A program made the position numbers and the translations under genes. The notes under the pieces are model-generated. The model ran no database searches. It was not told where the DNA came from and saw nothing but the letters and a program-made list of their open reading frames with translations. From Candidatus Nomurabacteria bacterium (GTDB taxonomy: Bacteria > Patescibacteriota > Minisyncoccia > Phycocordibacterales > UBA9973), in NCBI GenBank assembly GCA_021413905.1, contig JAIOPO010000005.1:81271-145270 (forward strand): a DNA stretch of 64,000 nt. Reading direction: 5' to 3'. Shown in pieces: positions 1-49,266 of this stretch; the first letter of the stretch is position 1, and each line of letters starts with the position of its first letter.

Positions 1-3000
1 CCTGTTGTACCAGACAAAGTTAAAGTATGAGAACTTCCAGAAAGTGTAGCGCCAGAACCTATTGTTAAAACATTTGAAACAGTTAAATTCCCTCCTAGAG
101 TTTTTGTTCCACCTGTTGAAACAGTCAAATTATAATAAGGAGTAATTGTGCTTGAAATAGTTTGTGTCCCACTTAAATAATAATCCACAGTGGAACCGGA
201 ATTCAAATTTACAGTAGAAAATCCAGAAGGATATGAACCAGCAAAAGTCGAAGCTTCTACGCGAATAGTACCTGTCACATCCAAAGTATTTGAACCACTT
301 GCTACGAGCGCAGTTAGAGGGTCAAAAGTTCCCGCGGACACAGTGAGCGTGCCACTACTTGCAAAAGTCAAAGCCGATGAACCGCTGACACTTTTCACTC
401 CGGTCCCGCTTGAAGTTAAATTATAAAATGTAGTCGTGCCTGAATTTATCGTCGCGTCGCCATTACCGGAAAGTGTGACAGTCGAAGTCGCTTGTGTAAA
501 TGTTCCCGTGCGTGTAAATAAAGTCCCAGAAGTTCCATCTAATGTATAAGAAGCATTACCTGTTGAAGTCAGAGTTCCAGCAATATTAATTTTTCCAGTT
601 ACAATGCCTTCACTTGTTCCAACAGACAAAGTATTTCCGGATAAAATAGAAAGTGTTGGATTGGTATAAGAATTCCCCGTACCTTGCACAGACAAAATAC
701 TACTTGAAACAGACTGCATCACATCTTCATCATTACTAGATGTATAACTTGATAGATTTGTAATAGTTAAACTTGTATTTTGATTACTTCCTATACTAAG
801 CACTCCGGTATTCAAAACCATTCCGGTTATTGCTCCAGAACTTTGTTTTGTAATAGCAGTAGATTCATTTGCATTTGAAACACCATCTACATACACAGTC
901 ACTATATCTCCAGACACAGCCGTAACACTAGCTAAAGTCCAAGTTCCACCAGAAATAGTAGTACTTGTACCAGACAAAGTACCATTTACTGCCACTTTTA
1001 CGGTAGCTCCATTGTTGCCATCAGCTGTTCCTGAAATAGAAATACCGAACCAATTAGTATTATTACTTCCATCATAATCTGTACCGTCACTTGATATTGC
1101 ATTTCCACAAGAAGCATCAGAGCGAGAAACGTTTACATAAGAGACCGCTGTTTGTGTACCAGATACACACATACTCCATGTGCCAGAAACTGCTGAATTT
1201 CTAAAAAATATTTTAGTGCCACTGGCTTGTCCATTAAAATTAATATTGTTAAAAGTATAAGTGCCACCAGATAAATACTGAACACGCACCGATGCTGTGG
1301 TGATAGTATATGTACCAGTCGAAGTCATTGAAGCAGAAAAAATAATTGAAGGAGTAAAACCCGTTCTTTCGTCATCAGATGCATCAGATCCAGAATTATT
1401 TGTAATCGTTAAATTATAAAAAGCAGAACTTGATGTGAGTGTGCCAGAAATTGTTTGTTGCACTGAACCAGAAAGTAACACTGTGCCAGATCTAGCAGTA
1501 AATGTCCCACTATTAGACCAATTTCCCCCTAAAGATATTTGATAATTACTAACTGAAACATCAAGCGTCCCTGAAGAAATTGTTAAATCTCCATTTACTG
1601 TAACCGCTCCTCCAAGCGTAGCCGTTCCTCCTGCTCCTGATTTTGTAAGAGAATAATATGTGGCTGATTTTATAGTTTGAGAACTAGTAGAAGTATATTG
1701 TACAGTGTTACCCGTGGCTGTGGCTGTGAGTGTGGTTATAGTTGGTACTGTTCCAGAAAAAGTAAGGATTGCACTTGTGCCTTGAGTGACCGTCGTAGCA
1801 GAAGCACTTGAGGTCATCGTCAATCCTGTTGAAGTTGTAATATTATTTGTTAAATTAACATAAGAAATTCCCATTGCTGTCACAGCAGATGAATTGCTAT
1901 AAACTACTGTATTACCGGAAGCGCTCGCAGTCAAAGTTGTAATAGTCGGCAAAGAAGAACCGGTAAAAGTTAATATTGCATTTGTGCCTTGAGTTAAAGT
2001 TGTCACTGTCGGTTGTGTTCCTGAAAAAGTTAGACCGGTACCTGTGGTTACATTGTTCGTTAAATTTGTAATTGTAAAAGATTGTGTGCCGGAAATCGTT
2101 TGCGCATTTGTATCAAAAGTCCATGACCCTGAACCAGATTGAAAAGTACTTGTCGTATTATTAGTGAGTCCACCTCTAAAAACACAAGGACTATTTGCGG
2201 AAATATTAAAAATTGCACCGGAATTTACTGTTACAGTTCCAATAAAAGTATTAGTGCCTGTTACATTAGAATCTGTAAAATTACCTCCAGCACCAGTAAT
2301 AGTAGTTGTACCGGTCACAGTCAGGGTGGCATTAGCAATACTAAATGTTATCGCTCCAATAACCAAGTTTCCTCCTATAGTAACATTCTTTGCTCCACTA
2401 AATGTAGCATTTCCAGTAGCATTAAAATTGCCCGATGTCGTTAAATCTGAAGATAAATTAATAGGATTTGCATTATTAGAACTAAAACTACCCCAAACTG
2501 CTCCATTTGTATTTACTGTTACACCTGGACGAAAATCTAAACTCACATTAGAAACATGAGCACCTGCTGTCGCAGTCACAGTCCCATTAACTCTAAAAAG
2601 AGTTGTTCCAAATTGGACATTGTTATCCACAACAAGCATATTAACTGATGAGTTCAAACTAATATTGATAAGATTAGTGCTAGATGAAAATGAACCCGTG
2701 TATCCAGAAAAAGTTAAAGATTGAATTGTAATACCTGATGAAACAACAGAATCAGCATTTGCTGTAGTTCCTACACCATCAAAACAAACATCATCAGTAG
2801 ATCCCGGAGCAGCGACACGAATCGTCCCTCCTGAAGTAGCAGCCCAGTTTGTGGTAGGGCTAGCAGTCCAGCTTGTTGTTGTTCCACCTCCTATCCAATA
2901 TTTAGTACATGCCGCCGCCGCACTATGCGCAGAAAAAATAAAACAACAAAATGCAAAAACTAAAATTGCAAAAAATTTATAATTTATTTTCCTGAACACA

Positions 3001-3008
3001 ACATTCAT
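1..3008 (-). CDS. Large exported beta-strand-repeat surface protein (N-terminal >1000 aa; the C-terminus lies beyond the window start).
   Basis: ATG at 3008 on the minus strand followed by a hydrophobic signal peptide (MNVVFRKINYKFFAILVFAFCCFIFSAHSAAAA). The frame stays open to position 1, which is why it is absent from the ORF track. T/S/G/N-rich with recurring ~45-aa units (TQGT.AILTF.G..PTITTLTA.A.GNTV.Y). Confidence 0.7.
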   Translation of the reverse strand, partial: MNVVFRKINYKFFAILVFAFCCFIFSAHSAAAACTKYWIGGGTTTSWTASPTTNWAATSGGTIRVAAPGSTDDVCFDGVGTTANADSVVSSGITIQSLTFSGYTGSFSSSTNLINISLNSSVNMLVVDNNVQFGTTLFRVNGTVTATAGAHVSNVSLDFRPGVTVNTNGAVWGSFSSNNANPINLSSDLTTSGNFNATGNATFSGAKNVTIGGNLVIGAITFSIANATLTVTGTTTITGAGGNFTDSNVTGTNTFIGTVTVNSGAIFNISANSPCVFRGGLTNNTTSTFQSGSGSWTFDTNAQTISGTQSFTITNLTNNVTTGTGLTFSGTQPTVTTLTQGTNAILTFTGSSLPTITTLTASASGNTVVYSNSSAVTAMGISYVNLTNNITTSTGLTMTSSASATTVTQGTSAILTFSGTVPTITTLTATATGNTVQYTSTSSQTIKSATYYSLTKSGAGGTATLGGAVTVNGDLTISSGTLDVSVSNYQISLGGNWSNSGTFTARSGTVLLSGSVQQTISGTLTSSSAFYNLTITNNSGSDASDDERTGFTPSIIFSASMTSTGTYTITTASVRVQYLSGGTYTFNNINFNGQASGTKIFFRNSAVSGTWSMCVSGTQTAVSYVNVSRSDASCGNAISSDGTDYDGSNNTNWFGISISGTADGNNGATVKVAVNGTLSGTSTTISGGTWTLASVTAVSGDIVTVYVDGVSNANESTAITKQSSGAITGMVLNTGVLSIGSNQNTSLTITNLSSYTSSNDEDVMQSVSSSILSVQGTGNSYTNPTLSILSGNTLSVGTSEGIVTGKINIAGTLTSTGNASYTLDGTSGTLFTRTGTFTQATSTVTLSGNGDATINSGTTTFYNLTSSGTGVKSVSGSSALTFASSGTLTVSAGTFDPLTALVASGSNTLDVTGTIRVEASTFAGSYPSGFSTVNLNSGSTVDYYLSGTQTISSTITPYYNLTVSTGGTKTLGGNLTVSNVLTIGSGATLSGSSHTLTLSGTT

Positions 3009-3096
3009 ATGTAATAATTATACCATTTGAGAATTTAGATTCAAAGGAATATATAAAAAATATTATTGAAAATATTTTTTATAACACTAAGGTTTG

Positions 3097-3170
3097 TCCA
3101 CCCTCTTGGATTCGAACCAAGGACCCCAGAGGTATAAGCTCTGTGCTCTAACCAACTGAGCTAAGGGTGG
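3097..3170 (-). tRNA. tRNA with anticodon UAU (AUA-decoding tRNA-Ile type).
   Basis: Folds as a 74-nt cloverleaf on the minus strand: acceptor CCACCCT/AGGGTGG, U8, D-arm GCTC-AGTTGGTTA-GAGC with G18G19, anticodon arm CAGAG-CTTATAC-CTCTG (U33, anticodon TAT), T-arm CTTGG-TTCGAAT-CCAAG, discriminator A. No CCA is encoded. Confidence 0.7.
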
Positions 3171-3254: not shown

Positions 3255-5162
3255 CTACACTTCAAGTTTCTTTGGCAAAATACCATTTGCTATGATTATT
3301 TTTTCATAGTCTTCTTGCTCAAGAGTTTCAACTTCAATAAGCTTGTCAGCTATTGCTTTCAATGCTTTTTTGTTTTCAGTCAAAACTTTTTCTGCGGATT
3401 TCAAACCATCATTTATGATTCTTGAAACTTCAGAGTCAATCTTCATAGCGATGTCTTCTGAATATTCTTTTTCAACTGGATCATTCCATTGAGACTTTCC
3501 GCCATCACTGCTGAGAGCCACAGGTCCGATAACATCCGACATCCCCCACCTCGTCACCATAGCGCGAGCGAGGTTCGTCGCCACTTGCAAATCACTCGAA
3601 GGTCCTGTAGTAATATCTCCGAAAATCATTTTCTCCGCCACATATCCGCCAAGGGACATTGCTATGTCATCTATAAATTCTTTTTTGGATTGCAGTTTTC
3701 TTTCTTCGAGTGGAAGCTTCATTGTGTATCCGCCTGCACGTCCGCGAGCAACAATAGAAACTTTATGCACAGGGTCAGCGTATGGCAAGACAGAAGCCAC
3801 GAGCGCATGCCCCGCTTCGTGATATGCAGTAATTTCTTTTTCTTTTTTAGTAAGTAAATGACTTTTTCTTTCAGGTCCCATCATCACTTTTTCTATGGAG
3901 CGTATCAAATCAAATTGAAAAACTTTTTTTCTATTTTCACGCGCTGCCAATATCGCGGACTCATTCATAAGTGAAAACAAATCTGCGCCAGAAAAACCAG
4001 GTGTTCTCTCCGCAATTAATTTCAAATTGATATCTTCAGCCAATGGCTTTTTTAATGAGTGAATTTTTAAAATTTCTTCACGGTCTGCACGGTCAGGTAA
4101 ATCAAGAATAACTTTTCTATCGAAACGTCCCGGGCGAATGAGCGCAGGATCCAAAACATCCGGTCTATTTGTCGCCGCCATTACTATCACTTTATCATTT
4201 GGTTCAAAGCCATCCATCTCCACCAAGATTTGGTTCAATGTCTGCTCACGTTCGTCATTACCCCCACCAAAACCTCCTCCGCGAGTACGCCCTATCGCGT
4301 CTATTTCATCCACGAAAATAATAGCTGGAGCGGATTTCTTTGCCATTTTAAAAAGATCACGCACTCGACTCGCTCCCACACCCACAAACATTTCCACGAA
4401 TTCAGAACCGGATAAATGGAAAAATGGCACGCCTGCTTCCCCTGCTACGGCTCTTGCTAATAAAGTTTTTCCTGTACCAGGTGAACCAGTCAAAATAACT
4501 CCTTTTGGAATTCGCGCACCAATATCCAAAAACTTTTTCGGTGCTTTCAAAAAATCAACGATTTCTAAAAGTTCCTGTTTAGCTTCCTTATTGCCAGCGA
4601 CATCTTTAAATGTGACTTTGCTATTTTGATCATTTGGATCTGTTATGCGTGCTTTTGATTGACCGAAAGTAAAAGCTTGCATGCCTGAGCCTTTTACTTG
4701 TCTGGACATATACCAAAAGAAAAAAATTACAAAAATTACAGGTAGAGCAAATGGTAAAATATTTCCCAACCAAAACAAAACACCATTATCACTCTTTATT
4801 TTTACTTCAACAGCCTGCACAGCTTCGGCTTTTACACCATAATTATATAAAGTCTGAGATAAAGAAGACTCTATTTCTTTTTTAGATTTTTTAACATCGC
4901 CATTTTTGTATGCGATATTTAATTTATCAGCTTCAACAGCAATACTTTTCACTTCTCCAGAAGAAACACTTTTTGCTAAATCAGAAATAGGTATCTCTGG
5001 TATTTCTTTTGAAGAACTAGAAATTACCAAATATAAACCAGTAATCAGCATAAAAATCATAACTGCACCAAATATATTTCCAGTAAAATTTGGCTCTGCA
5101 TCTTTCTTTTTTCCTTTTTTATTCTCTTGTTTATTATTTAAAAAATTTAAATCCATTTTCAT
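3255..5162 (-). CDS. ftsH: ATP-dependent zinc metalloprotease FtsH.
   Basis: N-terminal TM segment, AAA Walker A GSPGTGKT, and zinc motif HEAGHA. Confidence 0.95.
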
Positions 5163-5211
5163 ATATTATCATAAAATTACAAATAAAAAAAGGACATGAT
5201 TTCTCATGCCC

Positions 5212-5553
5212 CTATTTTTTTATTGGATAATATCCTTTGGCAAAACAAGTGCCAGTTTGGACGATTACAATCAATTTATCCTTTTGATAAAAATACTTAA
5301 AACCAAATTGTTTAGCAAATATAATTGACTCTTTGTTTGAAAGATGTAAATCTTTACATAAAGTCATCCCATGCTCAAAACAAATTGTGTCTCGTTTATT
5401 TTCTTCTTCAACAGGATAATCGACAGTACGAACAGGATTTATAACTTCTTTGTTTTTTTTATTACATTTACTCTGAGTAAATAAATAGAAAAACAACAAA
5501 ACGAAAACCGAAGTTAAAACAAGACCCCACTTATTTTTTAATTTACCAGACAT
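5212..5553 (-). CDS. Small exported hypothetical protein (signal peptide or TM anchor followed by Cys; lipoprotein-like).
   Basis: N-terminal hydrophobic segment LVLTSVFVLLFFYLFTQSKC. No recognisable family. Confidence 0.45.
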   Translation of the reverse strand: MSGKLKNKWGLVLTSVFVLLFFYLFTQSKCNKKNKEVINPVRTVDYPVEEENKRDTICFEHGMTLCKDLHLSNKESIIFAKQFGFKYFYQKDKLIVIVQTGTCFAKGYYPIKK

Positions 5554-5620
5554 AACGCCTCCTTTTTTTTAAAAAGATTAAACAACATCGTTCTAACAAA
5601 ACGATAGCATAAAATTAATT

Positions 5621-6014
5621 TTTGTGGAACTGACGAGAATTGAACTCGTGTGCAGAAGGTTTTTGCAAAGAAGTCTACATATTTAGCGCATTTTTTTGTT
5701 TAAATTTTAAAATTCTTAAATGAACAAAATATTTTAAAATCGAGTTCTAAATTTTAGTGAAATATGCGAACAAATATTTCCTTATCCCGATAATATTATA
5801 CCCATTCTCATATATCGGAAGTCTATGAGATGGACACCAGTTTGGCTTACGCGAAAGCTGGAGCGAAAGCAAAATCATTCATACCGAAGTATGGTGATGC
5901 TTTCACTTTAGAAGCTAATTTTGCAATTAACATTTGAACTAAGTTTTACGAGATTACGTTCATTCTCGATATGCATCAATAGCAAAAGGCCCACTGTCTA
6001 TGCCTTGCAGTCCC
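5621..6014 (-). ncRNA. ssrA: tmRNA (ssrA, transfer-messenger RNA).
   Basis: The 5' GGGACUG pairs with the 3' CAGUUCC, giving the G3:U70 tRNA-Ala identity pair. The 3' T-arm is ACGAG-TTCAATT-CTCGT followed by a 7-nt acceptor strand and discriminator A. An internal tag reading frame ends ...GMNDFAFAPAFA-UAA. It lies immediately downstream of and co-oriented with smpB. Confidence 0.75.
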
Positions 6015-6026
6015 AATATTTTATTT

Positions 6027-6479
6027 TCAACGTCCTTTATATTCTCTACGAAGCTCTCGGTCTGTGTCGCGTTTTTTTGTAGTTTCACGTTTATCGTATT
6101 TCTTTTTTCCTTTAACCAAAGCTATTTTGACTTTGATTTTTCTACCTTTATTATACACTGCTATTGGTACTATAGTCAAGCTTTTGTTTTTTTCAGTTTC
6201 TACGAGTTCTATGATTTCTTTTTTCGTCAGTAATAATTTTTTATTTCTTAAAGGATCATAATCTTTAGGTGCATTTTTTACTTGATATGGCGGAATATTT
6301 GCATTAATTAAAAAAGCCTCCCCCCCACGGATAACAATAAAAGCCCCTTCGAGAGACATTTTGCCATCACGAACTGATTTTACCTCAGTCCCTAAAAGCT
6401 CAATGCCAGATTCGTAGTTTTCCAAAATCTCATAATCAAAAAGCACTTTTCTATTTTCAGCATAATTTGCCATACACAC
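6027..6479 (-). CDS. smpB: SsrA-binding protein SmpB.
   Basis: The protein starting MANYAEN...GTEVKSVR is typical SmpB and it is adjacent to the tmRNA. The true start is probably the second or third Met. Confidence 0.9.
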   Translation of the reverse strand: MCMANYAENRKVLFDYEILENYESGIELLGTEVKSVRDGKMSLEGAFIVIRGGEAFLINANIPPYQVKNAPKDYDPLRNKKLLLTKKEIIELVETEKNKSLTIVPIAVYNKGRKIKVKIALVKGKKKYDKRETTKKRDTDRELRREYKGR

Positions 6480-14800: not shown

Positions 14801-17575
14801 CTACCCATTTCTCTTCTCATATCTGCCCATGATTTCTGCTTCAACTTCTTCCCTGTCACGTCCATATTTGAGATAGGATAATTCTTTCAGACTTTCCACT
14901 ATTTCCGGATTGCCTTTTGGCAACAAAGACCAATGAGATGTCATACTGAAAGGTTTTGTAGGTGTGCCATTTACGAGCATACTCACATAAGAATTAAAAT
15001 TATCCAATTTCATAATATCTGTCGCTGAAAAAGTTGGCTTAAATTTAGACTCAATGGCAGTGGCATCTTCTGGAGAAACACGATAAACAGCCATAGAACC
15101 GACGTTTCCAAAAACAGCATTTTTAATATTTTCTTCAAGTTGAGAAATGTATTGATGAGCGACAGTCAAAGACAAACGATATTTGCGGGCTTCGGAAAGA
15201 ATAGAAGCGATGGAGTCTGTAGTCACATTTTGGAATTCATCGATATAAAGATAAAAATCATTCATCGGTTTGCCAAACATATCCACGCGAGAAAGTGCCG
15301 CCATTTGTATTTTACCTACAAGTAAAAGACCTATCAAATTCGCATTGATGTCTCCCAGGCGACCTTTGGATAAATTAACCAAAAGTATTTTTTTATTATC
15401 CATAATTTCTCGGAAATTAAAAACAGATTTTTCCTGCAAGACCACAGGACGCATAATATCATTTGAAATAAAATTATCAAATTTAGAAGTAATATACGGC
15501 ACAAAGTTTGCCAGGCCTTGGTCACCTGTTGTTTGTTCCGCAGCCATCCAGAATTGCTTGATAATAGGATTTTTACATTTTGCCAATTTCATATCACGAA
15601 ATTCTTTGTCAGTCAAAACACGGGAAATCTCAAGTAATGTACAACCAGACTCAGGATCTTCCATTATCAAAAAAGCGGAATTTTTGAAATATTGTTCAAA
15701 CATCGGCCCACCGGAAGTTTTCATATCAAAAAGTTTATTAAAAATTCCCATCAATTCGTTTACTACAAAAGTTTTTTGTTCAGGATATTTTGGATCAAAT
15801 TCAAGCATATTGAGACCCATAGGACGCGCAGTATATGCAGGATCAAAATAAATAACATCATCAATGCGTTCTTTTGGAACATAAGACAAAATCTCTTGTA
15901 TATCACTACCATGCGGATCTATAAAACAACAACCATCACCATTCATAATATCTTGAGCAATCATATTTTTTAAAATAGTGGTTTTACCAGTACCAGTCTG
16001 ACCTATAACATACATATGACGCATTCTATCTTCACGAGACATATGTATTTCTGTGTCACGTCCTCTATAACTATTTATCCCCAACAATATACCATCTTTG
16101 CCCATTTCCATAGGAGCAGGTGCCATACCGGCTTTTGCTTCTTTGAGTTGAGGTTGACTTGAAATACCGACAGGATAATGAAAAACGGAAGCCAATTCTT
16201 TTAAATTCATCGGTAAAACTTTTCCAGAATTAAATGTGCGATAAGAAAAATCATGAAATAAATCTTTCAAGCCTGAACCTTTTATTTTTTCAAAAACAAA
16301 AGAATTACTCGCTGATTCTTTAAATTGATTAAAAGAAGACTCAATCTCATTCAAAATTTCTTCCGCACGGATTAATGTTTCCGCAGACGCAACAACACGA
16401 ATATTTGCTTTCAAAATTGAACTTTTTAATTTATTACCTATTTTCTCAACAGCCCCCTCATCCACAGGCCTTCGCCCTTTCATATATTTTTCATCTTTTT
16501 GTTCATTTTTTTTAGAATCATCAAATACCAAACCTTTCACTGCTTGAAAAAAAGCATGCTCAAATTTATAAAAATTATCATTTGCATGTTTTACAGAAAT
16601 TCCACTTTTTACATCATCTAAAATCATATGAAATTCTCTTGTAAATTTTTCACCCGCTGGAGCTACGACGATCTGTATAGCTGCTCCTTCTCCTTGTGTT
16701 TTTAATTTTGAAAATACATTCAAAATAGTATTCATAGGATCATGATCTATATTGTCATAAGTTTTTATAGGCAAAATCGGTCTTTCAGAAAAATGAGCAT
16801 AAGCCCCCACAGAAAAACCTTTTTCGTTGAAAAGATTATAATCTTCAGTTACTTCATTTATTTTTGCATCATGATAAAAAGCCAATACTTGTTTTTCAAA
16901 AAGAGAAATATACTTATTTGGAACAGCAGTATATACCACCACCTCATCACTTTGATTTCCTAACGCAACTTCAAGGGTGAAGTAATTGTCTTTTGAATTA
17001 AATTTATCTTCAGCTATTGATTGCATACCCGCATAAAATTGTTCCATTGCACCAATAAATTCTTTGAAACCTTTTTGCATTTCAGCTTCGTCTTTTGACG
17101 GTGGTAATGTAATTTCAAACAATGTCATATTTAAAGATTTCCAAATAGGTGTACCTTCTTTTAAACCAGAAATAAGTTGCCCTGTCTTTAAATACTGAAC
17201 CAATAATCTATGAAAATCATCATCGACATGAGCATTGTTCATTGAACTTACAGTATCTAAAGCATTTTTTATTCCCTTGGTTAATAAAATACCCAAAAGT
17301 TCTTCCATCACCACATCATGCTTTTCGGGTTTCAATTTTAAAATAATCGTTTCTTTTTCTTTTTTATTCAATAAATTATCTTTACTTAAAACATCAACAG
17401 AAGAAACTTTTTCATATTCAGAAATTGTATTATTCAACGTGTCAATTTCAGCATTTTCAAAATGACCCCTATCGATTAATTCTTTTTCTTTTTGAGCAAC
17501 ATGTGCGCGCAAATACTCCAATTCTTCATTTGGAGTTTTAAATTTTGGTATATCTTTAAAATATGAATTTTCCAT
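14801..17575 (-). CDS. Large P-loop ATPase. The C-terminal half is a TraG/VirD4/FtsK-HerA-type (type IV secretion coupling-protein-like) ATPase domain. The N-terminal ~500 aa are uncharacterised.
   Basis: Walker A GQTGTGKTT, Walker B LYIDEFQ, and a C-terminal TraD/TraG-like segment (RKYRLSLTVAHQYISQL). No N-terminal TM helices. Confidence 0.6.
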   Translation of the reverse strand: MENSYFKDIPKFKTPNEELEYLRAHVAQKEKELIDRGHFENAEIDTLNNTISEYEKVSSVDVLSKDNLLNKKEKETIILKLKPEKHDVVMEELLGILLTKGIKNALDTVSSMNNAHVDDDFHRLLVQYLKTGQLISGLKEGTPIWKSLNMTLFEITLPPSKDEAEMQKGFKEFIGAMEQFYAGMQSIAEDKFNSKDNYFTLEVALGNQSDEVVVYTAVPNKYISLFEKQVLAFYHDAKINEVTEDYNLFNEKGFSVGAYAHFSERPILPIKTYDNIDHDPMNTILNVFSKLKTQGEGAAIQIVVAPAGEKFTREFHMILDDVKSGISVKHANDNFYKFEHAFFQAVKGLVFDDSKKNEQKDEKYMKGRRPVDEGAVEKIGNKLKSSILKANIRVVASAETLIRAEEILNEIESSFNQFKESASNSFVFEKIKGSGLKDLFHDFSYRTFNSGKVLPMNLKELASVFHYPVGISSQPQLKEAKAGMAPAPMEMGKDGILLGINSYRGRDTEIHMSREDRMRHMYVIGQTGTGKTTILKNMIAQDIMNGDGCCFIDPHGSDIQEILSYVPKERIDDVIYFDPAYTARPMGLNMLEFDPKYPEQKTFVVNELMGIFNKLFDMKTSGGPMFEQYFKNSAFLIMEDPESGCTLLEISRVLTDKEFRDMKLAKCKNPIIKQFWMAAEQTTGDQGLANFVPYITSKFDNFISNDIMRPVVLQEKSVFNFREIMDNKKILLVNLSKGRLGDINANLIGLLLVGKIQMAALSRVDMFGKPMNDFYLYIDEFQNVTTDSIASILSEARKYRLSLTVAHQYISQLEENIKNAVFGNVGSMAVYRVSPEDATAIESKFKPTFSATDIMKLDNFNSYVSMLVNGTPTKPFSMTSHWSLLPKGNPEIVESLKELSYLKYGRDREEVEAEIMGRYEKRNG

Positions 17576-46503: not shown

Positions 46504-49266
46504 CTAATTTGTTAAAGAATTAATTAATTTTCTTGTAGCAGGACCAAAAATACCATCAGCCTTTAAATTCAAATGTGATTTCTGAAATTGGATCAAAGCA
46601 TTTTTAGTAGCATTCCCAAATTTATTGGTTTCAAAACCTTTAGAACCAACACCTCTTAAAGAAACAGGAAAACCATTTTTATTCAAAAATTCTTGTAATT
46701 TCTTCACATCAAGAGAGGTGTTTCCAAACTTTAAATTATTTTTAAATTTAAAGTTATTATTTGAACTTAAATTTACACAATTATTCAAAGAGCAATCATT
46801 GTTGTTGATAAGATTATTTTGATTTTGATTTAAATTATTCAACAATAAAGCAACACCAGATGGTCTACTGTGCACAACAAAAGGAGTCATTGTTAACATA
46901 TTACTTTGATTACCAAAAGAATCCGTAACACGCACGAAACAATTATGTACACCGACAGGTAAATAGTTTAAAGTAATATGATTAACACCAGAAGAAACAG
47001 AAGTTGTACCAGAAGAACAATCACCATAAAAAACAACACTGCCAGATTCAGAAGAATTTAAATCATAAACAGGAGTACTGTTTGTTGAATTTTGAATTGC
47101 TGATATTTCATTTATTACAGGTGCTTCTGTGTCCACTTCATAATTAGAAGAATCAGTAGAAGCAGAAGGTGCATTACCTGTACTTGTATACCAAGAAGTA
47201 CCGACAGTGATAACATTTGAAAGATCAGCAACAGAAGAATCTGGTGTAAATAATGCCGTATAAATTGTAGGATCAGAAGTTACAGTAAAATCAGAAATTG
47301 AACCATTGGATACGGAAACATCAGCTGAAGTAAAAGCAGTGGGTGTCTCAGAAAAAGTAAATGTAATTGTCGCAGTATCACTTGATTTAAAAGTGTACCG
47401 ACTGAGTGAAATCACAACACTCGGTATAGTTTGATTTACGGTTAATGTATTAGCACTCACTGTTCCAGTTCTTGAATTCACAGCTATATCTGTCAGAACT
47501 GCTTTAAAATTAAAAATATCACTATTTGCAAAATCAGTAATTGCTTCAAAATCTGAAGCAGAGATAGACATTGTTTTTGTTCCAGCTACAACATCTCCAC
47601 TCAAAATAGTATACGCACTTCCAAGATTAGCATATGCACCACTATTTCTACTTGCTTGTATTTGAATTGTTCCACCAATCAAAGAATCATCATTAGAGTT
47701 TAAAGGAACAATAATATTTAAACTAGTATTAGTAGAATTCCAATAATCTGCAACAACGTTTCCACCCACAGATGTCACTGCCCCAGTAGTGAATGCAATC
47801 GGCAAAGTAACGTCAGTACCTGCTGATCCTAATAATAAAGTAGTAGTACCGGCTCCTTGATTTGAAACAGCGATATCTATAATCCCATCATTATTAAAAT
47901 CTGCAGTATTTAATGAAATAGGAGTAGACCCTACAGCGATATCTATTTTAGCACCGAAAGTTCCGTCTCCAACTCCAATTAAAAAAGAAATTGTATTTGC
48001 AGTTTGGTTTGAAACAATCAAATCCTGTTTTCCATCTCTATTTAAATCTACAACGGAAATAAAAACACCAGCATTAGTGCCGACATTATAATTCACAGCG
48101 GTAGCAAAGCTACCAAGACCATCACCAATTAAAACAGAAAGATTGCTTGTGGTTTGATTTGAGGAAACCAAATCAACTTTTCCATCATTATTAAAATCAC
48201 CATAACTCAAACCAATAGGAGCAGTACCAACACTATAATTCACAGCGGTAGCAAAGCTACCAAGACCATCACCAATTAAAACAGAAACGGAATTTGAAGT
48301 TTGGTTTGAAACAGCAATATCAAGATGACCATCACCGTTCAAATCAGTTGAAACAACTCCAGTAGGAGCAGAACCCACAGTAAATGATACAGGGTTAGCA
48401 AAAGTACCAGTACCTGAACCAAAAATAACAGTCGCACTCGTACCTGCTACTGTAGTGGAAACAACCAAATCAATATTACCGTCTTCATTGAAATCACCAG
48501 AAGACATATAACGAGATGTTTTACCAACAGAATAAGTAGAATTAGTACCAAAACTTCCAGCTCCATCACCCAGCAAAACAGAAATACTATTTCCATTATC
48601 ACTTGTAGCAGCTATGTCTAATTTTCCATCTTTGTTAAAATCAGCAACCACCATTCCTCTTGGACGTGAGGCTACTGTGTAATTCGTAGCGGTACCCATA
48701 TTCCCTGTTCCATCGCCGAGAAAAACAGAAATATTTGCAGATGTTTGATTTGAAACAGCCATATCCATATTTCCATCTTGATTGAAATCAGCAGTGACCA
48801 CAAATCTATTACTAGTACCTACAGTATAAGGTGAATGCGATTCAGCAGAAGCTGTATAGTCAAAAAAATGACAACCGCTTGTGGTAAAATTTTGAACAGT
48901 AGAAGCATTGCCTACTCCTGCACTATTCACAGCAAAAGCTTTATAGTAATAAGTAGTATTACATTTCAAAGAAGCACTTGGAAATGTATAAGAAAAAGAA
49001 CCAGTATTAAAAGAACCACTTTTTACAACTTGAAAATTTAAATTATTAGAAGCAGTACCATAATTAAAACCGACAGACAATGCATTCTCTCCACCAGTAT
49101 CACTAATATTTCCCAACAAAACAGCTGAAGTCGCCCCTACTGTAACCAAAGGTGAAGTAGTACTGACTGTTGGAGCAGAAATTGCAAATGCTGAATTTGT
49201 TAAAAATCCAAAGAATATAAAAATTATATATAAAAAAACGCCGTATTTTGTATTATATGTTCGCAT
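46504..49266 (-). CDS. Large exported protein: N-terminal FN3-like region, seven FG-GAP/VCBS-type repeats (beta-propeller) and a C-terminal peptidoglycan-binding (PG_binding_1-like) domain.
   Basis: Signal peptide. Repeats of the form DFN.DG..D.....N.....SV..G.G.G.F occur seven times. The C-terminal segment carries the PG_binding_1-like motifs KKLQEFLNKNGF...DGIFGPATRKLI. Confidence 0.7.
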   Translation of the reverse strand: MRTYNTKYGVFLYIIFIFFGFLTNSAFAISAPTVSTTSPLVTVGATSAVLLGNISDTGGENALSVGFNYGTASNNLNFQVVKSGSFNTGSFSYTFPSASLKCNTTYYYKAFAVNSAGVGNASTVQNFTTSGCHFFDYTASAESHSPYTVGTSNRFVVTADFNQDGNMDMAVSNQTSANISVFLGDGTGNMGTATNYTVASRPRGMVVADFNKDGKLDIAATSDNGNSISVLLGDGAGSFGTNSTYSVGKTSRYMSSGDFNEDGNIDLVVSTTVAGTSATVIFGSGTGTFANPVSFTVGSAPTGVVSTDLNGDGHLDIAVSNQTSNSVSVLIGDGLGSFATAVNYSVGTAPIGLSYGDFNNDGKVDLVSSNQTTSNLSVLIGDGLGSFATAVNYNVGTNAGVFISVVDLNRDGKQDLIVSNQTANTISFLIGVGDGTFGAKIDIAVGSTPISLNTADFNNDGIIDIAVSNQGAGTTTLLLGSAGTDVTLPIAFTTGAVTSVGGNVVADYWNSTNTSLNIIVPLNSNDDSLIGGTIQIQASRNSGAYANLGSAYTILSGDVVAGTKTMSISASDFEAITDFANSDIFNFKAVLTDIAVNSRTGTVSANTLTVNQTIPSVVISLSRYTFKSSDTATITFTFSETPTAFTSADVSVSNGSISDFTVTSDPTIYTALFTPDSSVADLSNVITVGTSWYTSTGNAPSASTDSSNYEVDTEAPVINEISAIQNSTNSTPVYDLNSSESGSVVFYGDCSSGTTSVSSGVNHITLNYLPVGVHNCFVRVTDSFGNQSNMLTMTPFVVHSRPSGVALLLNNLNQNQNNLINNNDCSLNNCVNLSSNNNFKFKNNLKFGNTSLDVKKLQEFLNKNGFPVSLRGVGSKGFETNKFGNATKNALIQFQKSHLNLKADGIFGPATRKLINSLTN

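Follow-up and report, generated by a model that had tools for sequence, protein, structure and literature searches.

The 64,000-nucleotide stretch of DNA studied here, referred to as the window, belongs to contig JAIOPO010000005.1 of a Candidatus Nomurabacteria assembly (GCA_021413905.1) and carries a gene for transfer-messenger RNA (tmRNA), ssrA, on its minus strand. An earlier note, made from the letters of the window alone, had proposed an unannotated tmRNA at this place. The present analysis confirms that the region is a genuine, intact and ordinary member of the universal tmRNA family in a bacterium of the Candidate Phyla Radiation (CPR). We estimate a probability of about 95% that it is a working one-piece ssrA gene of a Candidatus Nomurabacteria/Paceibacterota bacterium, which would act by canonical trans-translation. 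The identity is borne out by the agreement of ARAGORN with the Rfam model RF00023 and by covariation in 76 sequences, and no evidence contradicting it was met in this analysis. All window features described below lie on the minus strand unless marked (+).

Identity and architecture of the tmRNA

RF00023 matches 5622..6014 with 113.9 bits, far above its gathering score of 47 (E 9.9e-44), and the match spans model positions 1-374 of 374, which is the full length. ARAGORN calls a tmRNA at 5624..6014 and reads the tag AKLASKVKASPYFGMNDFAFAPAFA followed by a stop codon. Together with the sequence itself and the 3' flanks of relatives, these calls place the mature form before CCA addition at 5625..6014, a one-piece RNA of 390 nucleotides (nt). 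The bases past the discriminator A (5624..5622) read CAA; the CCA end is not encoded and must therefore be added after transcription, and an encoded CCA is also missing in most of the relatives whose 3' flanks were compared. The earlier note had drawn the gene as 5621-6014, of which the 6014 end is correct while the other end lies 1-4 nt too far. It had also held that no open reading frame (ORF) accounts for the interval. No ORF of at least 60 amino acids (aa) is found within 5560..6000, and antisense ORFs such as 6000..6233(+) only clip the edge; a protein-coding explanation of 5560..6026 was rejected on these grounds. A gap of 12 nt separates the end of the SmpB gene from the 5' end of the tmRNA, in agreement with the proposed placement of the tmRNA directly after smpB, and smpB-ssrA adjacency is the commonest arrangement (PMC4131195).

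Relatives were collected by an SmpB-based scan with one genome per species, which yielded 80 loci (L001-L080), and an nhmmer profile built from the ARAGORN-positive tmRNAs was searched at these loci. In 76 of the 80 loci, smpB is directly followed by a full-length tmRNA homologue (nhmmer E down to 1e-115). The remaining four comprise three partial or split matches, two of them at contig ends, and one locus (L070) with no match. ARAGORN, as run here, reported 27 of the 76 clade tmRNAs and missed 49; its tags were misplaced in L020 and L080 and begun late in L017 and L079. Of the loci negative with ARAGORN, 17 were tested on RF00023, and all of them reached 108-131 bits. As Rfam/Infernal found every locus tested against 27 of 76 for ARAGORN, annotation pipelines that rely on the latter likely under-annotate ssrA in Paceibacterota. 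The Nomurabacteria/Paceibacterota tmRNAs are homologous to that of the window in sequence, position, structure and tag family.

The helices were taken from a de novo scan for pair compatibility and covariation and from RNAalifold, and were curated in gene coordinates, in which position 1 corresponds to window position 6014. A structure from RNAalifold alone was rejected, since it took some pseudoknot stems as nested helices and contained a spurious 47-49/272-274 pairing; the curated structure was used instead and then scored by pair counts on the 76-sequence alignment, with controls in which the partners were slid by 1-3 columns. For the whole structure, 91.6% of cells are in standard pairs, compared with 39-50% in the slid controls, and both-sided (compensatory) changes are observed in 82 of 101 pairs. 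The covariation score is 0.378 against 0.08-0.12 for the slid controls, and none of 500 shuffles reached the observed values. The four second stems that form the pseudoknots, when considered alone, are 92.9% paired (31-58% when slid), and 19 of their 23 pairs show compensatory changes.

The tRNA-like part of the molecule is as the earlier note had described it. Rereading of the minus strand gives GGGACUG at 6014 and ACGAG-UUCAAUU-CUCGU-CAGUUCC-A at 5649..5625. The 7-bp acceptor stem (gene positions 1-7/383-389) is formed by the 5' strand GGGACUG at 6008..6014 and the 3' strand CAGUUCC at 5632..5626, which is followed by the discriminator A at 5625, the two elements of the 3' side together covering 5625..5632. 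Its pairs are G1:C, G2:C, G3:U, A4:U, C5:G, U6:A and G7:C; the stem is 99.4% paired in the 76 sequences, and pairs 4 and 5 covary. The alanine identity pair G3:U70, with G3 at 6012, is invariant in 76 of 76 sequences, and the discriminator A is likewise invariant. The T-arm, ACGAG-UUCAAUU-CUCGU at 5633..5649 (positions 366-370/378-382), is recognized in the sequence and by RF00023; its helix is 100% paired with compensatory changes in all five pairs, so that the canonical T-arm of the note is borne out. Helix 2 connects the 5' strand at 5969..5996 (gene positions 19-46) with the 3' strand at 5653..5682 (gene positions 333-362). Its segments, which are helices 2-4 of the covariation analysis, are 84-98% paired and show double changes in 14 of 19 pairs.

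The four pseudoknots, PK1-PK4, whose prediction the earlier note had left for later, are all supported by covariation. PK1 at 5935..5968 emerged from the de novo scan and consists of the stems 47-50/63-66 (CGAG/CUCG) and 53-58/75-80 (91% paired). Helix 5 at 5837..5861 (154-160/172-178 and 163-164/169-170), identified by RNAalifold, holds the stop codon in its loop; it is 86% paired, and all seven outer pairs show double changes. PK2 at 5785..5836 comprises 179-183/212-216 and 186-191/203-208 with a second stem at 195-202/223-230 (94-99% paired). PK3 at 5744..5780 is formed by 235-241/250-256 and a second stem at 244-247/268-271, and is supported by RF00023, RNAalifold and covariation; its second stem is 86.5% paired and four of four pairs covary. 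PK4 at 5689..5741 comprises 274-284/302-312 and a second stem at 293-297/322-326, which are 93% and 98% paired. The covariation support for every canonical helix and for PK1-PK4 shows that the RNA has the full canonical one-piece tmRNA architecture. Among the relatives, the tmRNA at L027:4859-5307 contains an insertion of ~50 nt within PK2 (alignment columns 237-288).

Comparison with the standard one-piece tmRNA (RF00023 and the E. coli SsrA model) reveals that G3:U70, the discriminator A, the T-arm, helix 2, PK1, the GCA (Ala) resume codon, the stop codon in helix 5, PK2-PK4 and the adjacent smpB are all shared. In contrast to the standard tmRNA, the window RNA contains an extra UUCG hairpin in the tag ORF and no encoded CCA. 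The tag frame has 25 codons rather than the 10 of E. coli, which corresponds to an insertion of ~39 nt relative to the Rfam consensus, and the tag ends in ...FAFAPAFA where that of E. coli ends in ...YALAA.

The tag peptide and the hairpin within its reading frame

The tag frame occupies 5850..5924 and its 25 codons encode AKLASKVKASPYFGMNDFAFAPAFA, as supported by ARAGORN, RF00023 and the alignment. The resume codon, which the earlier note had not placed, is GCA at 5924..5922 and is preceded by a conserved UAAUU; the frame is closed by the UAA at 5847..5849 in the helix 5 loop. The peptide ends in ...NDFAFAPAFA before UAA exactly as had been read in the note, and ARAGORN gives the same peptide. 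G91, A94 and A95 are invariant in the relatives, while third codon positions of the tag frame vary. With the Ala of the charged tmRNA, the total added tag amounts to 26 residues.

The position of the resume codon in the alignment was used to read the tags of 77 sequences, in which the frame is conserved. They belong to a clade family of the form AKL[AT]SK[AV]KA..(V)SPYFGM[NK]DFAFA, followed by a tail that reads PAFA, [SR]VSA[SLY]A or similar, and their length ranges from 21 to 29 codons with a median of 28. SPYFG is present in 54 of the 77 and FAFA in 53; the part ahead of SPYFG carries a net charge of +3 in 60, and each tag contains 4-5 aromatic residues. The C-terminal residue is Ala in 73 tags, and the one before it varies (LA in 22, FA in 19, SA in 16 and YA in 8). 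The window tag is a typical, ordinary member of this family. It is slightly shorter, with 25 codons against the median of 28, and shares its ...FGM[NK]DFAFAPAFA ending with L003, L044, L054 and L062.

Two published tags serve for comparison, namely AANDENYALAA of E. coli and AANKNEENTNEVPTFMLNAGQANYAFA of M. florum (PMC9097571). An E. coli-type C-terminus is not found in the clade: the window tag ends in PAFA, and an LAA ending occurs in none of the 77 tags and AA in two. A site resembling the SspB-binding AANDENY is also absent from the window tag, whose N-terminal part reads AKLASKVKA. The similarity to Mollicutes is closer. Mollicute tags (that of M. florum; that of M. pneumoniae, 27 aa), which are recognized by Lon, are similar in length (27 against 26 residues for the window), contain a central Pro-aromatic-Phe...Met/Gly patch (VPTFM against SPYFGM in the window), carry [YF]AFA near the C-terminus, and are rich in hydrophobic and aromatic residues (PMC9097571, PMC8403727, PMC9382460). 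Both groups of organisms also have small, reduced genomes. They differ in phylum, the window being of CPR origin and using the standard code. The N-terminal half of the window tag is basic (net +3), where that of the Mollicute tag is acidic or polar, and in contrast to the Mollicute tag a variable tail (PAFA, SVSASA, RVSALA) follows FAFA in the window clade. The likeness comprises a few residues and may reflect convergence.

The tags typical of Firmicutes, for example in B. subtilis, have an ...LAA ending. The earlier note had likened the tag to those of Mollicutes and Firmicutes; the Mollicute half of this comparison holds for length, for the P-Y-F-G-M core and for [FY]AFA, whereas the Firmicute half does not, so that only the Mollicute comparison is apt.

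Within the tag frame, the hairpin CAUAC-UUCG-GUAUG at 5880..5893 (positions 122-126/131-135) lies over the codons for Pro-Tyr-Phe-Gly-Met and is supported by covariation. As a structural element of the mRNA-like domain it is specific to the clade, and it is 85.7% paired in the alignment against 15-43% in the slid controls. The sequence changes observed in relatives follow the stem. Where the Tyr codon UAC is replaced by the Phe codon UUC, the Gly codon changes from GGU to GGA in five of five loci, and the A-U pair becomes U-A. L012 encodes SPYANM yet keeps the 5-bp stem with a GCAA loop, and changes of Gly to Ser or Arg touch a loop base only. Codon choice points in the same direction: in window genes, 18% of Tyr codons are UAC and 18% of Phe codons are UUC, whereas the tags use UAC in 61 of 70 cases (87%) and UUC in 61 of 74 (82%). 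An equally stable fold is obtained in just 4.8% of usage-weighted synonymous recodings of SPYFGMN.

The hairpin could conceivably be a by-product of selection on the peptide SPYFGM and not selected as RNA, and one group of relatives fits this reading. In the deeper relatives L072-L080, SPYFG is kept while the hairpin is replaced by a different, shifted one (CUCCA-UAUUU-UGGAG), which argues that the peptide is constrained in its own right. The compensatory codon changes, the stem retained by L012, the confinement of the Gly replacements to the loop base, the strong preference for two rare codons and the excess of pairing over slid controls are difficult to reconcile with a by-product, which we hold to be quite unlikely. 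Selection appears to act on both the peptide and the RNA hairpin. The hairpin probably keeps the mRNA-like domain compact or stable until it is unwound by the ribosome, and nuclease protection is a further candidate role.

Expression and fate of the tagged proteins

smpB is located at 6027..6473 and encodes 148 aa from the ATG at 6473, or 150 aa from a GTG at 6479. The protein matches PF01668 (E 1.9e-50) over profile positions 2-142 of 143, which corresponds to a full-length domain, and its C-terminal tail contains Y-D-K-R-E. The 148-aa ATG-start form is on record, identical, on one Logan contig (run SRR15633504; protein calls only), and the 150-aa GTG-start form is not on record in public assemblies. 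Within the smpB coding sequence, a promoter-like TTGACT-18 nt-TATAAT is present at 6150..6179 (11 of 12 positions match), ~135 nt upstream of the tmRNA 5' end. The motif TTGACN-18-TA[TC]AAT recurs in 75 of 77 sequences over the homologous Leu-Thr...Tyr-Asn codons, with freely varying third codon positions in the spacer, and its distance to the mature 5' end is 126-531 nt in relatives with a median of 163. The pattern points to a promoter of its own for ssrA inside smpB, from whose transcript RNase P would remove the leader. A consensus scan found no intrinsic terminator directly after ssrA; a weak AUCGUU/AACGAU hairpin and a U-rich tract follow the gene, and the first scored terminator lies at 5213..5190.

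The identity and the structure of the RNA come from the present data, whereas each biochemical step of its action would follow established tmRNA-SmpB knowledge. The RNA would be transcribed with smpB or from the promoter-like motif within it, its 5' end would be cut by RNase P, and its 3' end would be trimmed and completed by the CCA-adding enzyme. Alanyl-tRNA synthetase would charge it with Ala via G3:U70, and SmpB and elongation factor Tu would bring it to a ribosome stalled on non-stop mRNA. The nascent chain would then be moved to the Ala and the ribosome would switch to GCA at 5924, leading to the addition of A-AKLASKVKASPYFGMNDFAFAPAFA (26 residues) and to termination at UAA. Tagged proteins would carry ...SPYFGMNDFAFAPAFA at non-native C-termini and would finally be degraded.

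The tag most likely marks the product for a Lon-type or FtsH protease that would read hydrophobic/aromatic C-terminal degrons, rather than for ClpXP/SspB; this is the least certain step of the scheme. Mycoplasmas, which possess no ClpXP, use long aromatic tags ending in NYAFA, and their tagged proteins are degraded mainly by Lon (PMC8403727, PMC9382460, PMC9097571). FtsH and Lon of E. coli also degrade ssrA-tagged proteins (cited in PMC8403727). In the window, ftsH (3255..5162; Pfam M41 and AAA) lies two genes downstream of ssrA, and FtsH is the sole AAA+ protease among the ~40 ORFs scanned against Pfam, which also include M48 and M50 peptidases. None of these ~40 ORFs, which lie outside the ribosomal protein cluster at ~21.6-34 kb of the window, is Lon, ClpX or ClpP. 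ftsH is found within 4 kb of smpB-ssrA in 70 of the 76 relatives. FtsH is a candidate protease for the tagged proteins. The linkage would fit a functional tie, but local synteny with an inverted smpB-ssrA cassette accounts for it just as well. A literature search on tmRNA tags or Clp/Lon in CPR, Parcubacteria or Patescibacteria found nothing specific.

Alternatively, the tag could be an E. coli-type ClpXP degron, which is read via its C-terminal residues and the alpha-carboxylate, its aromatic and long character being incidental. E. coli relies mainly on ClpXP to degrade ssrA-tagged proteins (PMC8403727), and the nearly universal terminal Ala (73 of 77) and the Ala-rich tail would suit such a reading; the window is also only part of the genome, the remainder of which could hold ClpXP. 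Tag strength in E. coli is set by the terminal LAA (PMC9097571). The clade tags have L, F, S or Y as the penultimate residue, with AA in two and LAA in none, and their best-conserved parts, SPYFG and DFAFA, are internal. These features, together with the lack of clpX and clpP among the scanned ORFs and of an AANDENY-like SspB site, make an E. coli-type degron unlikely, and degradation by a Lon-type or FtsH protease is preferred.

Several points weigh against parts of the scheme. Expression, processing, charging and tagging are deduced from other systems. The first stem of PK3, where the alignment is gappy, is the weakest element of the structure with 74% pairing. Because the promoter-like motif coincides with conserved residues of SmpB (L-T...Y-N), its conservation is partly at the protein level. 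With 64 kb of the genome in view, Lon or ClpXP may lie elsewhere. Depletion of FtsH in M. pneumoniae did not stabilise a tagged reporter (PMC8403727), which makes the ftsH linkage weak evidence that may reflect synteny among close relatives.

We also consider, tentatively and as a proposal that is less probable than its opposite, that this CPR clade evolved a long aromatic degron with a basic N-terminus, an SPYFG core, FAFA and an Ala end independently of Mollicutes, to be read by Lon or the linked FtsH because the reduced genomes would be without ClpXP/SspB. SPYFG would then be doubly constrained, as a peptide in contact with a protease or adaptor and as an RNA hairpin. If true, this would represent a second, independent switch of tag-protease specificity like that of Mycoplasma.

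Host lineage, gene neighbourhood and implications

The labels of most of the 80 related loci read Candidatus Nomurabacteria, Paceibacterota or Patescibacteria; the highest SmpB identity is 85%. The host thus represents a distinct, undescribed species-level lineage of Candidatus Nomurabacteria/Paceibacterota (CPR). A Mollicute origin or a code in which TGA encodes Trp was rejected, since FtsH (635 aa), SmpB with its TGA stop and other genes are intact under the standard code (table 11). Table 4 merely adds overlapping spurious ORFs, and the SmpB relatives are CPR metagenome-assembled genomes, not those of Mollicutes. L004 contains the start of a 16S rRNA gene (L004:7950-8450; Rfam SSU 383.7 bits, cut by the locus end) at a distance of ~3 kb on the downstream side of ssrA, which would be useful for phylogenetic placement of the clade.

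The context of ssrA consists of housekeeping genes, which include smpB, ftsH, infC, a ribosomal protein cluster and secY. Across relatives, smpB-ssrA is situated between ftsH/tRNA-Ile and infC in two orientations: in 32 loci ftsH follows closely downstream and shares the strand, and in 38 it lies upstream in divergent orientation, which indicates recurrent local inversion of the smpB-ssrA cassette within the clade. A tRNA-Ile(UAU) gene (ARAGORN; Rfam tRNA 69 bits) adjoins ftsH at 3096..3170 and is conserved across the clade, with a counterpart in 56 of the 80 loci. In most bacteria, AUA codons are read by a tRNA whose CAU anticodon is modified by TilS, the gene of which is a frequent neighbour of ftsH. 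Decoding of AUA may thus dispense with TilS in the lineage; nothing on TilS/UAU in Patescibacteria was found in the literature.

Between ssrA and ftsH, an orphan ORF of 113 aa (5212..5553) is preceded by a strong ribosome-binding site, AAGGAGG, encodes an N-terminal hydrophobic segment, and is followed by the terminator-like hairpin at 5213..5190. It has no Pfam match, and tblastn found no counterpart among the 80 relatives, in which ftsH often begins 44-100 nt after ssrA, so that its position between the two genes is unique to the window. The ORF may represent a small insertion at the tmRNA 3' end, for which neither an att repeat nor an integrase was found.

This ORF bears on a rival reading in which the tmRNA copy is decayed or carried by a mobile element, as a pseudogene, a phage ssrA or an att remnant would be. 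Two observations favour this reading: tmRNA 3' ends are common integration sites (PMC4131195), and the ORF directly after ssrA has no counterpart in the relatives. As no second copy of the 23-nt ssrA 3' end was found in the window, even with up to 3 mismatches, an integrated island or a duplicated att site there was rejected. The match to RF00023 is full-length, the window sequence preserves all helices, several relatives have exactly the same tag ending, and the gene lies in a chromosomal housekeeping context at a position that is syntenic in 76 relatives. A decayed or mobile copy is extremely improbable on this evidence, and the locus is best regarded as the chromosomal ssrA gene of its host.

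We also note three other genes of the window. An open frame of at least 1005 codons at 3..3017 runs off the window start, has no Pfam match at E<=1e-5 and lies in a region of higher G+C content (~38%); it may encode a large lineage-specific surface protein. A 924-aa protein encoded at 14801..17575, amid housekeeping genes, shows a weak match to a TrwB/VirD4-type coupling-protein DNA-binding domain (PF10412, E 5e-7). In a 920-aa protein encoded at 46504..49266, FG-GAP repeats and a bacterial Ig-like domain are combined with a peptidoglycan-binding domain at the C-terminus; a role at the cell surface or in adhesion is probable, with possible relevance to an epibiotic lifestyle.

The understanding of trans-translation is left unchanged by these results, and the gene belongs to a well-known family; for annotation, the gain is the exact position of an RNA gene of an essential pathway in a CPR genome. 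Modestly interesting side results are the tag and hairpin specific to the clade, the putative smpB-internal promoter and the poor recall of ARAGORN. The clade provides a clean natural example of a sequence that appears to be constrained both as peptide and as RNA hairpin, and its long, aromatic, Mollicute-like tag hints at protein quality control via Lon or FtsH rather than ClpXP in reduced genomes.

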